Source: Synechococcus sp. A15-24
GTDB taxonomy: Bacteria; Cyanobacteriota; Cyanobacteriia; PCC-6307; Cyanobiaceae
NCBI RefSeq assembly: GCF_014280195.1
Contig: NZ_CP047960.1
Location: forward strand, 270,001-302,000
Length of the DNA stretch: 32,000 bases
Direction of reading: 5' to 3'
Made by a program: the position numbers and the translations under genes
Notes under the pieces: generated by a model
What the model saw: only the letters and a program-made list of their open reading frames with translations
Told to the model about the DNA's origin: nothing
The model's database searches: none
Shown: positions 7,144 to 14,242 of the stretch, in pieces
How the letters are laid out: every line of letters starts with the position of its first letter
Numbering within the stretch: the stretch's first letter is position 1

Positions 7144-8613
7144 GTGACCGTCGCCCCCGCCCGTCCCTACAACCGCAGCGACTGGGCCAGCTCCTTCGTC
7201 AACGTCGACGAGGAACTCACCGATGTAGCTCTCACCCCTGTACGAGGGGTCGTGCCGGCGGAGCTCCAAGGCACCTTTTACCGCAACGGTCCTGGCCGCT
7301 TGGAGCGGGATGGCCAGCGGGTCCATCACCCCTTTGATGGCGACGGCATGATCGCCGCCATGCGGTTTGACAACGGACGCGTCCAGCTGACCAATCGCTT
7401 CGTTCGCACCGAGGGCTTGCTGGCGGAGGAGAAGGCCGACAAGGTGTTGTACCGCGGTGTTTTTGGGAGTCAGAAGCCCGGCGGACGTTTGGCCAATGCC
7501 TTCGACCTGCGGTTGAAGAACATTGCCAACACCAATGTGGTTCGACTGGGGGACCAGCTCCTGGCTCTCTGGGAAGCGGCCGAGCCCCACGCCCTTGATC
7601 CTCAAAGCCTGGAAACGCGTGGGCTGTCACGGCTGGACGGCGTGCTGAAAAAGGGTGAGGCCTTCAGTGCCCACCCCCGCTTCGACCCCGGCCATAACGG
7701 CCGACCCAGCATGGTCACCTTTGGGGTCAAGACCGGTCCCCGCAGCACCATCCGCCTGATGGAATTCGCCACGGAGGGCCCTGACGCTGGAACCCTGCTG
7801 CACGATCGTTCCGACAACTTCCCTGGTTTCGCCTTCCTGCACGACTTCGCCATCACCCCCAATTGGGCGGTGTTCCTGCAGAACGCCATCGCCTTCAACC
7901 CCCTGCCTTTCGTCACCGGTGAAAAAGGGGCAGCCCAGTGCTTGCAGTCCAAACCGGGCGGCAAGGGGCGCTTCTGGCTGATTCCGCGGGATTCCGGCGA
8001 GTTCGCGGGGCAGAAGCCCCGCATCCTGGAAGCCCCTGAGGGCTTTGTTTTCCATCACCTCAACGCTTTTGAGGACGGCGATCACGTGGTGGTGGAGAGC
8101 ATCGTCTACGACGACTTCCCCTCCATCGGCCCTGACGATGACTTCGCCGAGGTGGATTTCGACACGGTGCCGAACGGAATCCTGCATCGCTGCCGCCTTG
8201 ATCTGAGCCGCGAGATAGTGAAGACCGAGCGGATTTCAGAGCGCACCTGCGAGTTCGCCATGGTGAACCCGGAGCGGCAGGGGCTGAGTGCCCAGTTCGC
8301 CTGGATGGCGGTGGCCGAGCGGGAGACTGGCAACGATCCGCTGCAGGCGATTCAGAAGTTGGATCTCAGCAGCGGTGCCACCCACACCTGGAGTGCTGCA
8401 CCCCGCGGATTCGTGAGTGAACCATTGATGGTGCGTCGTCCCGGTGCTGAAGCCGAAGACGACGGCTGGGTGCTCGATCTCGTCTGGAACGGTGCACGAC
8501 GGGCCTCCGATCTGGTGATCCTCAACGCCCGTGATCTGTCTGAAGTGGCGGTGCTGGAGCTGCCGTTGGCGGTGCCCCATGGGCTCCATGGCAGTTGGGC
8601 TGCAGAGTCCTGA
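7144..8613 (+). CDS. Carotenoid/apocarotenoid cleavage oxygenase (RPE65 family)
   Basis: Motifs FYRNGPGRLERDGQRVHHPFDGDGMI, HDFAITPNWAVF, FHHLNAFE and HGLHGSW are present, including the four-His iron ligand pattern. The start is GTG. Confidence 0.9.
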   Translation: MTVAPARPYNRSDWASSFVNVDEELTDVALTPVRGVVPAELQGTFYRNGPGRLERDGQRVHHPFDGDGMIAAMRFDNGRVQLTNRFVRTEGLLAEEKADKVLYRGVFGSQKPGGRLANAFDLRLKNIANTNVVRLGDQLLALWEAAEPHALDPQSLETRGLSRLDGVLKKGEAFSAHPRFDPGHNGRPSMVTFGVKTGPRSTIRLMEFATEGPDAGTLLHDRSDNFPGFAFLHDFAITPNWAVFLQNAIAFNPLPFVTGEKGAAQCLQSKPGGKGRFWLIPRDSGEFAGQKPRILEAPEGFVFHHLNAFEDGDHVVVESIVYDDFPSIGPDDDFAEVDFDTVPNGILHRCRLDLSREIVKTERISERTCEFAMVNPERQGLSAQFAWMAVAERETGNDPLQAIQKLDLSSGATHTWSAAPRGFVSEPLMVRRPGAEAEDDGWVLDLVWNGARRASDLVILNARDLSEVAVLELPLAVPHGLHGSWAAES

Positions 8614-8719: not shown

Positions 8720-9418
8720 ATGTTTGTGAAGGGCGAAAGGATTGCTGCGTGGACATTGCCTGTCTTGTCAGCCTGCATCCTTATTCCTTCGCCTCGCCCC
8801 CTGCGGGCGGAAACCTGGTCCTGTTCCGGAACCAGGCTGAAACTTTCGGTGCAGGAGCGGGGCCGCAGTGCAGTGGAGCGTTTTCGCTTTTCCCTGGCCG
8901 TTTCGGGTGAGGGAGCTGATGAGGCAAAAGCACTGCAGCAGCTCAACCGTCGTCTGGACAGCGTGCGCCGGGAGTTGAAGCCGCTGGTGCAGGGTCAGCT
9001 GGTTGTGCCAGCGCCCCACACCCACAAACGGGGACGAGCGTCAGAACAGCGCTACATGGCCAACACAGGCGTGTCCGGGCACGTCGGGCTGGGCACGTAC
9101 AACCGTTTGATTCAAGCGGTGGGTGGTATGCCAGGGGTGCGACTGCAGGGCATGGAATCTGTGGCGGCGCCAGAGAAGGAAGCTGCCCTGCGGCAGCGCT
9201 TGATGACGGACGCGTTGAATCAGGGTCAGGCTGATGCTGAAACGACGGCCCGGGCCATCGGTGCTTCGGAAGTCAGATTGCTAAGCATCGATCGTGCGGG
9301 GGCTATGGGCAGGCCAAGACCGTTGCGGATGGAGGCAGTCTCCCAGGGGTTTGATCCGGAGGAAGCTCCCGAACCAACGATCACCCTCCGCCTGCAACTG
9401 GAATACTGCCTCAGCTGA
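8720..9418 (+). CDS. SIMPL/DUF541-like periplasmic protein (tentative)
   Basis: It has a hydrophobic N-terminus and the overall DUF541-like pattern (…ALRQRLMTDALNQGQADAETTARAIGASEVRLLSI…TITLRLQLEY). This call comes from pattern memory only. Confidence 0.5.
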   Translation: MFVKGERIAAWTLPVLSACILIPSPRPLRAETWSCSGTRLKLSVQERGRSAVERFRFSLAVSGEGADEAKALQQLNRRLDSVRRELKPLVQGQLVVPAPHTHKRGRASEQRYMANTGVSGHVGLGTYNRLIQAVGGMPGVRLQGMESVAAPEKEAALRQRLMTDALNQGQADAETTARAIGASEVRLLSIDRAGAMGRPRPLRMEAVSQGFDPEEAPEPTITLRLQLEYCLS

Positions 9419-10958
9419 GTCCTTCTCGCTGCGCCTCCTTCCAGGCCAGCCGAGGAGCACTCCAAAGGGTGGCCAGCACCAGAGGGGTGACCGGTACGGC
9501 GGTGATCACGATGAAGGCCTGCAGCGCATCGATGGAGGTGCTGTCCCCCAGACCACTGCCGATGCGGAGCAGCACAAGGGTGAGGCTGCCGATCATCAGC
9601 GCCCAGAACAAGCGCAGCGGGGCAGGCGGTTCGTTGCGGCCACTCATCACCATGGCGGCCGCGTAGCTCATCGAGTCGGCACTGGTGCACATGAACAGCA
9701 CCACCAACACCAGTCCGATCGGGATCAGCAAACCGGCCAGGGGGAGTTGGCTGAGGATCGCGAATAGGGCAGCCGCTGCACCGTTCTGGGCCAGGGCCTC
9801 ACTGATTCCCGCACCCGCCAGTTCCAGTTGCAAGCCGGTGCCCCCGAGCAGGGTGAACCAGATGTTGGTCACGATCGGGCAGAGAATCGCAACGGCAAGC
9901 ACCAGCTCGCGGATGCTGCGGCCGCGGCTGACGCCAGCGGTGAAAAGTCCCATCAGTGGTGCATACCCAAGGAACCAGCCCCAGTAGAAGACCGTCCATC
10001 CGTTGATCCAGTTGCCCGGCGCCACGTTGGGCGTCAGGGCCATCCGAGGCAGGTGGATCAGATATGTGAGAAAGCCGCTGAAAAAGTGCTGAATCAGCCA
10101 CAGGCCAGGCCCGAGTAGCAGCAGCCCGGCCGCCATGGTGAGCGTCAGCCAGACGTTGAGTTCAGACAGCCACTTGATCCCCTTCTGAATGCCGCTGACG
10201 GTGGAGCTGGCGAAGACAGCGGTGAGCAGCACCACCACCAGCGATTGCAGCCCGGCGCTGTCGCTGAGCCAGGGCAGTTGGCCGGCGGCGTTGCTGAGTT
10301 GCAGCGAGAGAAATCCCAGGGGGCCAACCGTGCCGGCAATCGCGGCGACCACCGACAGCCCATCGGCCAGGTGACCGATCGGTCCATCCACCCAGCCCCG
10401 TGGCACGACATTCACCAGCAGGGTGCGTGGCCTGAGAGGCTCGCCCCGCCGTTCCAGGATCGAAAAGGTGATGGTGGTGGTGGTGGCCACCAGGGCCCAG
10501 GCGAGAAAGCCCCAGTGCAGAAAGCTCACCGCCAAGGCCGGATCCACCGCTTCTGCGGTGCCGCCCTGGATGCCTTCAAAAACGGGTGATGGGGTCTGGA
10601 AGTGATACAGCGGTTCAGCGGCAGACCAGAACACGCCCCCACCGGCCAGCAGGGTGCAGATCAGCACCGCGCACCAATCGAACAGTTTCAGGCTCGGTTT
10701 GGCCTCAGCTCCACCCAGCCGGAGTTTGCCGACGGGACTGATGGCAATGACCACGGCAATCAGAAACACCAGCAACACCATCCATTGCCACAGCCCGCCG
10801 AGGGCCGTGCTCACCACGGCTTTGCCGTTGTCGGTGAACTGCTTGGCCAGGGCGAGATCGATGGCTGACACCACCAAAAAGATCAGCAGCGGTGTGGCGC
10901 CGACCCACAGGGGTGGCTGTCGCCACCAGGACCGTTGGCTGGAGGATTGGATGGTCAT
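9411..10958 (-). CDS. BCCT-family (betaine/carnitine/choline-type) transporter
   Basis: It is a multi-TM protein with the BCCT signature region WTVFYWGWFLGYAPLMGLFTAGVSRGRSIRELV. Its ATG lies 3 nt after the stop of the upstream oxidase gene. Confidence 0.9.
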   Translation of the reverse strand: MTIQSSSQRSWWRQPPLWVGATPLLIFLVVSAIDLALAKQFTDNGKAVVSTALGGLWQWMVLLVFLIAVVIAISPVGKLRLGGAEAKPSLKLFDWCAVLICTLLAGGGVFWSAAEPLYHFQTPSPVFEGIQGGTAEAVDPALAVSFLHWGFLAWALVATTTTITFSILERRGEPLRPRTLLVNVVPRGWVDGPIGHLADGLSVVAAIAGTVGPLGFLSLQLSNAAGQLPWLSDSAGLQSLVVVLLTAVFASSTVSGIQKGIKWLSELNVWLTLTMAAGLLLLGPGLWLIQHFFSGFLTYLIHLPRMALTPNVAPGNWINGWTVFYWGWFLGYAPLMGLFTAGVSRGRSIRELVLAVAILCPIVTNIWFTLLGGTGLQLELAGAGISEALAQNGAAAALFAILSQLPLAGLLIPIGLVLVVLFMCTSADSMSYAAAMVMSGRNEPPAPLRLFWALMIGSLTLVLLRIGSGLGDSTSIDALQAFIVITAVPVTPLVLATLWSAPRLAWKEAQREGLS

Positions 10959-10961
10959 GCT

Positions 10962-12153
10962 TCAGGCTCGGACGGCATCGCGCTGGTGGCTCCAGCAGGT
11001 GAGGTCAACGGCGGGCTGCTCGCCGCAGGCCAGCCGTGCCAAGGAATCTCCGATCAGTGGCGCGAACTTGAAGGCCTGACCGGAGCCACCGGCGAAAAGG
11101 CTGAGGGTGGGGCTGAGGCGATCCAGCACGAAGTTCACATCGCTGGCCATGGAGTAGGGGCTCATAACCGTCTCCACCCGCTCTTGCACACCGGCCACCT
11201 CGTTGAACAGGAAGGTGTCCAGCAGTTCCACGAGCCTTTCCGGCGGCTCAGTGGCCATGGCATTGGGCTCAGCGACTCTGAGCTCTTTTGGTGCCCAGTC
11301 GATGCCGGCTTTGATCCGTGGCCGTCCATCGGCGGTGTGGCTCAGCACCGGGAAGGCGTAGTACAGGCCACCGTCGTCACCCCGTTCGCGCTGGAAGCAG
11401 AACCACTGGGGATAACGATCGGCGAGGGCCGGGTCGACGGTGTAGTGGGCCCAGAGCATCGGCCAGACCTCCAGTTTCGGCGCAAGGCCAAGGGGCGCCA
11501 GCAGCAGCTGAGTCCAGATGCCGCTGGTCACCACCACCTGGCCAGCACCGATGTGATGGCCGTTGTCCAGGGTCACGCCGGTTCCGTCGGCATCGATGCC
11601 TGCAACTGGGCAGTGCTCGATCAACTCCTGACCAGCTTGCCGGGCTGTGCGGGTCCAGTGGGCGATCACCTTGTCGCTGCGCACGGCACCGGCGGTCGGT
11701 TCGAACAATCCCGTGAACTCCGGCTTGGGCTTCAGCGGGAAACGCGCTCTGATGGCATCGGCATCAAGGGCTTCGTAGGGAATGCCCTGATCGTCCATCA
11801 CCCGGCGGGCGCCGGGGATTGAGCCTTCGATGGTCTCCTCGTCCCAGCTCTCGCCGTAAAACAGCAGGCCATGGGTTTCCCTGAGCTGCTCTCCGGCGTG
11901 GGTTTCCTCCTCCCGCCACAGACGGTTGGCCTCCTGGGCCAGGCGACAGAGCACCGGGTCGGAATACATCTCCCGGAACATCCTGGCCCACGCCAAAGCT
12001 GCTGGCTTTGGCGTGGGCCAGGGTCTTGGCTTCCAACAGCACCACATCACGGATGCCGCGGCGCGCCAGGGAAGCGGCGCAGCTGAGGCCAGCCATGCCA
12101 CCACCGACGATGACGACGGCCGCTTGGTTCGGCAGAGAGGAGGCTTGATTCAT
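10962..12153 (-). pseudogene. Monomeric sarcosine oxidase-like FAD-dependent amine oxidase (DAO family), interrupted by a 1-nt frameshift
   Basis: The N-terminus MNQASSLPNQAAVVIVGGGMAGLSCAASLARRGIRDVVLLEAKTLAHAKASSFGV (GxGxxG Rossmann) starts at ATG 12153 in one frame. The rest, ARMFREMYSDP...GGSGQAFKFAPLIGDSLARLA, continues in the frame of ORF 10962..12104. The switch is at the C-run 11987-11989. Confidence 0.8.
11982..12022. repeat. Perfect 18-bp inverted repeat with a 5-nt spacer, inside the oxidase gene at the frameshift site
   Basis: cctggcccacgccaaagc (11982-11999), tgctg, gctttggcgtgggccagg (12005-12022). The arms are exact reverse complements. Confidence 0.95.
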
Positions 12154-13205
12154 GCGGCGTCTCCGAAGCTGAGGCCGATGGGATCGGTGGCTGGGGCGGC
12201 TGCCACTTCGTTCAAAGCGGCTCCAACCGACAGGCCCTGATCGCGCTGGTTGAGGTAATCCGTGGCCCTGCGGCGCACTTCCTCCCGCACGAAGGCGTAA
12301 ACGTCCTTGGCGCCGGCATCCTTCCAGGCATCCGGCGAGAAGCGCTCGATCGAATCGGCGATCACAGCACCGGCGTTCACCAGGGGGTCCGGCAGGACGC
12401 GAATGCCCCGTTGACGCAATGCATCGGCTAGTTGAGGACTCTGGAACGGAGCATTGGCTGCCGGCACCACGGAGGTGACACGCAAGGCGGAGGCCATCTC
12501 CGCATTGATCAGACCGGAGATGGAACAGGGCAGCAGCAGGTCGAGCTTCAGTTCCCACCAAGGGCATCCCTGGGGAAGGGGCGTAGCACCGGGGAATCCA
12601 GCCCGCTCACGGCTGAGATCCACGGTGAACACGGTCCAGCCATGCTCCACCAAGGTTTGGGCCACAGTTCCCCCCACCGCGCCGCAGCCGTGCACCAGGG
12701 CACGGCCAGGTTTTGCATCCTTGAGTTCTGATTCGAGTACCGCTTCCACGGCGCCCAGGGTGCCGTGGGCCGTGGCGGCGCTGGCATCAACAGGACTGCC
12801 GACGGCAGCGAGCACATGTGGTGTCAGCTCTGTGAGCCTCTCCATGTCCTCGAGGCTGGTGTTGAGGTCACAGCCGGTGATCATGACCCCGTCAAGGGAC
12901 TTTAGCAGTTCTGCTGTCACGTTGATCAGCTCATCCTTGACGGCGGCGGGTTCCTTGGCCCGCGCCACGATCTTGCCGCCGGCAAAACCGGTGCCGTAAA
13001 GATCGTGCTTGTGGGTCATCAGGCCGGCCAGCCGCTCGCCGTCGGCGATACAGGCTTCATCGCTGGGGTAGTTCAGCAGGCGCAATCCACCGTTGGCGGG
13101 TCGCTTGGCATCGGTGTCCTCGGCCACCACAAACACCGAGAGATGGTCGGAGACGTGTTCCGCCAGCACCGAAACAGTCGGTGTGGGTCTGGTTGTGGTG
13201 GTCAT
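12150..13205 (-). CDS. Glu/Leu/Phe/Val-family amino-acid dehydrogenase (Leu/Phe dehydrogenase-like)
   Basis: It has the catalytic-Lys region NGGLRLLNY...MTHKHDLYGTGFAGGKIV and the NAD(P) fold ALVHGCGAVGGTVAQTL. ATG 13205 (MTTTTRP) shares one nt with the upstream stop (TGATG). Its stop overlaps the oxidase ATG (ATGA). Confidence 0.85.
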   Translation of the reverse strand: MTTTTRPTPTVSVLAEHVSDHLSVFVVAEDTDAKRPANGGLRLLNYPSDEACIADGERLAGLMTHKHDLYGTGFAGGKIVARAKEPAAVKDELINVTAELLKSLDGVMITGCDLNTSLEDMERLTELTPHVLAAVGSPVDASAATAHGTLGAVEAVLESELKDAKPGRALVHGCGAVGGTVAQTLVEHGWTVFTVDLSRERAGFPGATPLPQGCPWWELKLDLLLPCSISGLINAEMASALRVTSVVPAANAPFQSPQLADALRQRGIRVLPDPLVNAGAVIADSIERFSPDAWKDAGAKDVYAFVREEVRRRATDYLNQRDQGLSVGAALNEVAAAPATDPIGLSFGDAA

Positions 13206-14242
13206 CAGGCCACCTTCTCCATCATCTGGTGGTGCTCGACGTAATCGAGACTCCACTCACTCGGAGCATCCGCGATGCGCTGCTCCAGACGTGCGTAAAC
13301 CTGATCGGCCAACGCATCACCAGCAACACTGGCAAAGCTGTGGCGGCTCCAGCTGCGAATGGTGGCCATCAACCCAGCGGCAAAGCTGGCGGTGTCACCG
13401 TCCTCGTTCCAGCGACGGCGGTATGGACATTTCACGTACACCGTGCGCTCGTCGACCAGTCGCAGGCCATTGCGGTAGGGGGCTGAGGCCGTGTCCTTCA
13501 ACGGCGCCATGAATTCCTCTGGCGACTTGTAGAAGTTCAGTACGGTCCCTTTGCGGTACTGCTCCTCGCTGATCAGACCTTCATCGGCCATGCCGCGCCA
13601 GATCTGGTGCAACTGGTCGTGGACATTGCGGGTCTCACCACCGTTATGACCGAGGTAGCGACCTTCACCATCCCGGGACAGGTTCACCGTCAGCAGTCGT
13701 CCACCCACCTGCAGCTCCTTGCTGCGCAATTCCAGGATGTAGGTCCAGTCCTTGAGGGCCTGAGCGGTGAAACGCTGCAGGGCCTCAGCATCGCCGGAAG
13801 CCAGCACGTGGGTGTGGGTGTCCAGAGGACCCGGCGACGCACTGAGCCAGTGCATGGCCGTGGCGGAGAAGCCGAAACTCACCGTGTTCGGAGCCACAGC
13901 TGGCTCGTAGAAGCTGCGGGCGCTCACCAGCACCGTCGGTTTGGGTCCCCTGGGGATTTGCAGAGCCAGGTTCTCGGCCAGGGCCACGTTGTCGTTGCTC
14001 GGCAGGTCATTGCCGATCAGCGTCAGGTGAGCATCGGGCTGGTTGGCGTGCAGGCGGTCCAGCACCTGATGCCAGAGACCGACTGCGGTGCCACCATCGG
14101 CAGCTCCGTAATCGATCAGCACATGACTGGTTTGAGCAGTCAGTTGGTCAACACAAGTCAAGGCCCAGTCCGAGGCGGCTTCGATGCAGAGGAGAGCGCC
14201 TTCGGTCTGCGCGCTGTAACCCGTGGTCATGGCGATGGCCAT
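13205..14242 (-). CDS. SABATH-type (Methyltransf_7-like) SAM-dependent methyltransferase
   Basis: The SABATH hallmark blocks appear in order: VLIDYGAADGGTA, LIGNDLPSNDN, ARSFYEPAVAPNTVSFGFSATAMHWLS. An alternative start is ATG 14230. Confidence 0.8.
   Translation of the reverse strand: MAIAMTTGYSAQTEGALLCIEAASDWALTCVDQLTAQTSHVLIDYGAADGGTAVGLWHQVLDRLHANQPDAHLTLIGNDLPSNDNVALAENLALQIPRGPKPTVLVSARSFYEPAVAPNTVSFGFSATAMHWLSASPGPLDTHTHVLASGDAEALQRFTAQALKDWTYILELRSKELQVGGRLLTVNLSRDGEGRYLGHNGGETRNVHDQLHQIWRGMADEGLISEEQYRKGTVLNFYKSPEEFMAPLKDTASAPYRNGLRLVDERTVYVKCPYRRRWNEDGDTASFAAGLMATIRSWSRHSFASVAGDALADQVYARLEQRIADAPSEWSLDYVEHHQMMEKVA

Follow-up and report, generated by a model that had tools for sequence, protein, structure and literature searches.

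In the template-switch process described for quasi-palindromes, the growing strand anneals to the opposite arm of an imperfect inverted repeat, copies it and returns, leaving behind a more perfect palindrome and often a frameshift or a complex change (PMC7202029, PMC5941160). Reporters based on E. coli lacZ capture such events at an 18-bp quasi-palindrome as a 4-bp frameshift (PMC7202029), and comparative evidence from bacteria likewise documents the correction of imperfect inverted repeats to perfect ones (PMC5941160). Here we analyze a locus of Synechococcus sp. A15-24 at which, with a probability that we put at roughly 0.8, a single quasi-palindrome template-switch event of the kind modelled by Ripley would have broken an oxidase gene, the allele in question being known to us from the deposited sequence. 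The A15-24 genome is assembled into one closed contig, with completeness scored at 100% and contamination at 0.04%, and the window referred to throughout is the whole 32,000-nt stretch that was analyzed, corresponding to positions 270,001-302,000 of that contig; coordinates below are window positions unless a genome position is specified.

A perfect hairpin in a split oxidase gene

The first-pass annotation of the window had claimed an exact 41-nt hairpin inside an oxidase gene whose N- and C-terminal parts lie in different frames, with the switch between frames in a CCC run (plus strand 11987-11989, GGG on the coding strand). We recovered precisely this hairpin, CCTGGCCCACGCCAAAGC-TGCTG-GCTTTGGCGTGGGCCAGG, at 11982-12022, with a stem of 18/18 bp and a loop of 5 nt; the two parts of the gene give separate matches to the Pfam DAO domain, each in its own frame, and the switch falls within the repeat as described (Table 1). 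The runner-up among perfect short-loop inverted repeats in the window has a stem of 10 bp. A genome-wide scan for perfect stems with loops of at most 12 nt detected nine repeats with stems of at least 14 bp in 2,305,373 bp, among which the 18-bp repeat is the second longest; by a crude test combining an open frame with GC3 it is also the sole one of the nine situated in an open frame with coding-type GC3 (0.78), the same crude test assigning the remaining repeats to low-GC or non-coding-type sequence. Elsewhere in the genome, the longest perfect hairpins, with stems of 21, 17, 15 and 15 bp (C1:1734848-1734891, 1477657-1477697 and 2212753-2214528), have a local GC content of 42-46% versus a genome mean of 60%, and are probably parts of genomic islands or terminators.

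As deposited, the shifted gene specifies a product of 129 aa, with 54 native residues followed by 75 out-of-frame residues, and the Glu-Thr of a conserved GETR motif is lost at the junction. The C-terminal part is 82-98% identical to intact orthologues from the same genus. Exact look-ups of five alternative gene calls for the broken products returned no record, pseudogenes usually having no protein entry. Loss of oxidase function would be the expected outcome of such a lesion, and, judging from the sequence, inactivation of the corresponding pathway is plausible.

Table 1. Features of the operon, the split oxidase gene and its hairpin (window coordinates)
Feature	Position	Strand	Remarks
SABATH-type (Methyltransf_7) SAM methyltransferase, first operon gene	13205..14242	-	345 aa, intact
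Glu/Leu/Phe/Val-type (ELFV) amino-acid dehydrogenase, second operon gene	12150..13205	-	351 aa, intact; stop overlaps the oxidase start (ATGA)
Oxidase start ATG	12153-12151	-	
Oxidase, native N-terminal 54 codons	11992..12153	-	GxGxxG Rossmann FAD-binding start, MNQ...VVIVGGGMAGLS...SSFG; Pfam DAO positions 2-39, E 6e-10
Presumed template arm	12005..12022		5' arm CCTGGCCCACGCCAAAGC on the coding strand, encodes ..LAHAKA..; identical in G007 and in environmental contigs L058-L063
Loop	12000..12004		5 nt, CAGCA on the coding strand
Presumed corrected arm	11982..11999		coding-strand 3' arm GCTTTGGCG-TGGG-CCAGG; ancestral form GCTTTGGCG-AAA-CCAGG
Putatively templated patch (site of the frameshift)	11987..11990	-	TGGG for ancestral AAA; exact complement of CCCA at 12014-12017
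Premature stop of the shifted N-terminal frame	11764..11766	-	codon 130
Oxidase, remainder in the second frame	10962..11987	-	341 codons and stop, ARMFREMY...DAVRA*; Pfam DAO positions 59-353, E 4e-30
BCCT betaine-type transporter, last operon gene	9411..10958	-	515 aa, intact; starts 3 nt past the oxidase stop

The ancestral junction and its hairpin

Orthologues of the oxidase were searched for in 41 related genomes and then in 51 genomes of the genus. The gene is present in 40 of 50 congeners, always as one open frame of about 396 codons, and the coding-strand junction in all other genomes reads AGC TTY GGC GAA ACC MGN ATG TTC, encoding SS(F/Y)GETRMF, with the GETR invariant across all congeners that possess the gene (about 40 genomes). 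A15-24 alone reads AGC TTT GGC G-TGGG-CC AGG ATG. Its nearest relative, G007, is 96.5% identical to it over 10 kb and differs at the junction by AAA in place of TGGG, and six environmental contigs of the same subclade, 96-97.5% identical to A15-24, retain the ancestral GGCG-AAA-CCAGG along with an intact 396-codon gene. When JGI metagenome contigs were searched, the mutant junction had no matches and the ancestral junction, which served as a positive control, had five.

Given that relatives read AAA where A15-24 alone reads TGGG, the lesion consists of three adjacent substitutions and one insertion rather than of the single added base that had originally been proposed. When G007, G010 and a metagenome contig were used to polarise the changes, the four contiguous ones at the junction proved private to A15-24, and they include the sole private indel within 3.8 kb of the operon; no intermediate allele, with a subset of the four changes, was found in about 46 related sequences. 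An alignment of orthologues had been suggested as a check on whether one arm differs at several positions. It does, and every altered base now complements the opposite arm; furthermore, no orthologue carries the perfect repeat, and all of them keep the Rossmann N-terminus in frame. Removal of one base from the run does yield SSFGVARMF, as the first-pass annotation had stated, when read as a plain translation, but the ancestral protein reads SSFGETRMF. A one-base deletion, giving G-V-A-R in place of GETR, would hence not restore the native enzyme, and the gene should be annotated as a pseudogene with ancestral ...GETR... and not repaired in this manner.

In the oxidase outside the junction, the changes private to A15-24 comprise eight synonymous and no non-synonymous ones, which indicates that purifying selection acted on the gene until very recently and that the event is itself very recent. 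It may have occurred in culture; the absence of further decay fits a very recent mutation and an artefact equally well.

To compare the hairpins, the homologous 51-nt segment of every lineage was folded. The ancestral fold, as found in G007 and the environmental contigs, has a 9-bp inner stem (CGCCAAAGC/GCTTTGGCG), a 5-nt loop and a 5-bp outer stem (CCTGG/CCAGG), between which CCCA stands opposite AAA in a 4x3 internal loop, and not the 1-nt bulge envisaged earlier. From this ancestor to the derived form, pairing increases from 14 positions plus the internal loop to 18/18, and the DNA folding energy drops from -15.1 kcal/mol to the -26.3 kcal/mol of the perfect 18-bp stem, the patch being positioned exactly at the internal loop of the strong quasi-palindrome. 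The strong ancestral hairpin (-15.1 to -15.3 kcal/mol) is limited to the subclade that unites A15-24, G007 and the environmental contigs, and the homologous segment of the other lineages folds at -5.5 to -10.2 kcal/mol on account of the AAG, TAC/TTC or CGG codons present there. As the strong hairpin is thus confined to one subclade by codon choice, synonymous drift assembled a mutational hazard before the event took place. Only four other quasi-palindromes of comparable strength are found in the present genome.

Origin of the patch

Based on the above, we propose that in the ancestor of the subclade synonymous codons (AAA for Lys, TTT for Phe and AGG for Arg) built an imperfect hairpin in the coding sequence, from which a nascent 3' end could later have left its proper template during DNA synthesis. 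This end would have paired via one already complementary segment, used the other arm as its template through the internal loop, and come back to the proper template via the second complementary segment. Such copying would write TGGG over AAA, giving the perfect 18-bp repeat and one extra base, and because the templated copy added that base, the oxidase would be truncated and its Glu-Thr lost. The agent would accordingly be a polymerase switching template in a living cell. In the ancestor the patch is flanked by two paired segments (9 bp inner, 5 bp outer), enabling both the switch and the return, and TGGG is the exact complement of the CCCA facing it in the opposite arm, a match that a random 4-mer would attain with a probability of about 0.005. 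Differences are clustered elsewhere too, with two other clusters of at least four in the same 10-kb comparison with G007; since clusters are not rare in the vicinity, the argument is one of exact complementarity and position, not of clustering. The central suggestion of the first-pass annotation, namely a quasi-palindrome-templated mutation that perfected an imperfect repeat, is in this form supported by the orthologues and by the full complementarity of the changed bases.

Several further differences were observed. At 8812-8819 and 9262-9268, inside a 232-codon ORF (8720-9418), A15-24 shows six and five changes relative to G007 within 8 nt. The first of these clusters lengthens a small inverted repeat, CCTGGT...ACCAGG, in A15-24 and may represent another small templated change; the outgroup is unaligned there, so that the cluster is unpolarised. 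At 8613, about 100 nt upstream of the same ORF and probably in intergenic sequence, A15-24 is without one G that is found in G007 and G010 (CTGA-GC versus CTGAGGC).

The cumulative GC skew has its minimum at the contig start and its maximum at 1.12 Mb, placing the origin near position 1 and the terminus near 1.12 Mb. Based on these extremes, the fork at 0.28 Mb runs toward higher coordinates, with the plus strand as the leading strand and the gene oriented head-on. The corrected arm is the low-coordinate arm. An intramolecular model, with a hairpin in the nascent strand, would place the event on the nascent minus strand, i.e. the lagging strand; an intermolecular, cross-fork model would place it on the nascent leading plus strand, primed with CCTGG on the lagging-strand template. 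As the two models give opposite answers and the same product, we dropped the assignment of the event to the leading or the lagging strand.

A different possibility is that the allele arose outside the cell, through template switching during amplification, through a mutation acquired in a clone, or through faulty assembly or polishing at the hairpin, in which case the gene of the strain itself would be intact. We regard this as unlikely: base-calling and homopolymer errors take the form of simple indels, not of a three-to-four-nucleotide replacement in which all bases match the opposite arm, in-vitro template switches hit few molecules and should not win the consensus at normal coverage, and the assembly is closed in one contig with the completeness and contamination values given above. 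Some weight is nevertheless lent to an artefact by the restriction of the allele to one assembly, by the metagenome contigs, which include the ancestral junction and none with the mutant one, and by the rest of the oxidase, which is without sign of relaxed constraint. A further hint in the same direction comes from G007, where the gene next to the oxidase carries an insertion of one base, likewise private, though this strain, if it is WH8102, is reported to be high in homarine (PMC13236597); single-genome frameshifts in this operon may hence not all be real.

Far less probable is that the four changes accumulated one after another through ordinary point mutations and slippage, perhaps because a stable regulatory or RNA hairpin in the operon was favored by selection. 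In the mRNA, a hairpin of -26 kcal/mol that separates the upstream genes from the transporter gene might conceivably alter expression, but no T-run follows it, no relevant Rfam match was obtained, and selection for a hairpin need not destroy a gene that is intact in all other genomes examined. Similarly, the mutation clusters nearby are compatible with a gradual process, against which stand the lack of intermediates among the related sequences and the very low joint chance probability of an exact complement.

We assign a still smaller probability to continued expression of the oxidase, whether its two parts are joined through programmed ribosomal frameshifting at the GGG run or made separately and assembled as two polypeptides. 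In favor of this stand the high stability of the hairpin and an in-frame ATG (MFREMY...) directly past it; however, the shift site is within the hairpin and not upstream of it, no relative has such an arrangement, and restoration of the frame would still replace the Glu-Thr of the invariant GETR. With regard to two polypeptides, a 54-residue Rossmann start separated from the DAO fold would be unlikely to assemble with it. Finally, ectopic gene conversion from another locus, to which a 15-nt identity (TCCTGGCCCACGCCA) in groEL (genome C1:480672) might point, can be practically dismissed, as groEL has zero flanking similarity, recombination needs far more than 15 nt, the opposite arm is 5 nt distant and was already paired at 14/18 positions, no other plausible donor for the patch was found in the genome, and the groEL identity is a chance match attributable to the common peptide LAHA and codon usage.

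Operon context and comparison with known systems

The oxidase is the third of four tightly packed minus-strand genes (9411-14242), which constitute an operon found in 40 of the 50 genomes of the genus; nearly all congeners have it intact. We considered and rejected a general decay of this operon, the oxidase being intact in every other congener. The dehydrogenase is likewise intact in congeners other than G007, apart from two MAGs in which its matches are partial or split over separate contigs. In G007 (locus L056, G007:C1, about 231,360; equivalent to window 12586) a private insertion of one base (plus strand, GG to GGC) splits the dehydrogenase into pieces of 238 and 222 codons and creates an 8-nt perfect palindrome, GTGGCCAC; it is missing in all other genomes and in the six environmental contigs. 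The two sister isolate genomes of A15-24 and G007 therefore have different private frameshifts in the operon, and 0/6 wild contigs have either.

The intact orthologue of the oxidase aligns end to end with PDB 7exs, 2oln, 1el5 and 2uzz (E about 1e-34 to 1e-25). Its best solved relatives are a sarcosine oxidase and NikD, the E-values of which are equal, and for this reason we abandoned the choice between a NikD-like and a sarcosine-oxidase-like enzyme by sequence. On the model for N-methyl-L-tryptophan oxidase (NF008425) the oxidase scores 187.7 bits against a curated NCBIfam cut-off of 257, and on that for monomeric sarcosine oxidase (TIGR01377) 145.8 bits against a curated cut-off of 479.65, reaching neither; among family assignments, the broad Pfam DAO domain alone applies. 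With scores so far under the curated cut-offs, the name 'sarcosine oxidase' used in the sources is a mere family label. The likeness to the monomeric sarcosine oxidase/N-methyltryptophan oxidase/NikD family extends over the full-length alignment, and the broken spot corresponds to the G-x-T-R segment that follows directly on the FAD-binding beta-alpha-beta unit, the GETR aligning with G-K-T-R in the sarcosine oxidase 7exs and with G-A-E-R in NikD. NikD catalyzes the oxidation of piperideine-2-carboxylate to picolinate.

As a tentative suggestion, which we hold to be possible though doubtful, the operon might specify a cyanobacterial homarine route leading from lysine through piperideine-2-carboxylate and picolinate to N-methylpicolinate. 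In that case A15-24 would lack the picolinate-forming step through a natural knockout, and its closest sequenced relative would carry a natural frameshift in the dehydrogenase. High homarine production has been reported for Synechococcus and especially for WH8102 (PMC13236597); in the literature we found no description of such a lysine-to-picolinate-to-homarine operon pathway. Should G007 be WH8102, three explanations come into question: its dehydrogenase frameshift is a sequence error, the cell can do without the dehydrogenase, or homarine is made by a route other than this operon. A15-24 probably lacks the product of a conserved operon, possibly homarine, an abundant marine metabolite, and this matters for those who use the strain.

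The mechanism that we favor, a template switch within a quasi-palindrome, is not new, and the locus is best viewed as a natural and very clean instance of a mutational process familiar from textbooks; in addition, it points to the capacity of silent changes to create a mutational hazard within a conserved gene. In common with the quasi-palindrome mutations of the Ripley 1982 model, the E. coli thyA hotspot and the lacZ QP5/QP6 constructs of the Lovett laboratory (PMC7202029), it would involve one concerted, multi-base event that perfects the repeat and includes a frameshift. As in the Ripley-model and lacZ systems, the new bases would all be templated by the opposite arm, and paired segments flank the patch. 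With an 18-bp stem and a 4-nt patch, the locus also comes very close to the dimensions of the lacZ QP reporters; in those, however, the events were selected in a reporter, whereas the A15-24 case would be a natural gene-inactivating event in a marine cyanobacterium, reconstructed by comparison. The work on bacteria in which short imperfect inverted repeats become corrected (PMC5941160) and that on template-switch clusters in yeast and human genomes (PMC8604942, PMC7954356) share a common logic with the present case, in that homogenisation of the arms gives rise to multinucleotide mutation clusters. Those studies are statistical, and the E. coli part of PMC5941160 deals mainly with non-coding repeats, whereas A15-24 offers a single coding event that can be traced base by base against a densely sampled ancestral state.
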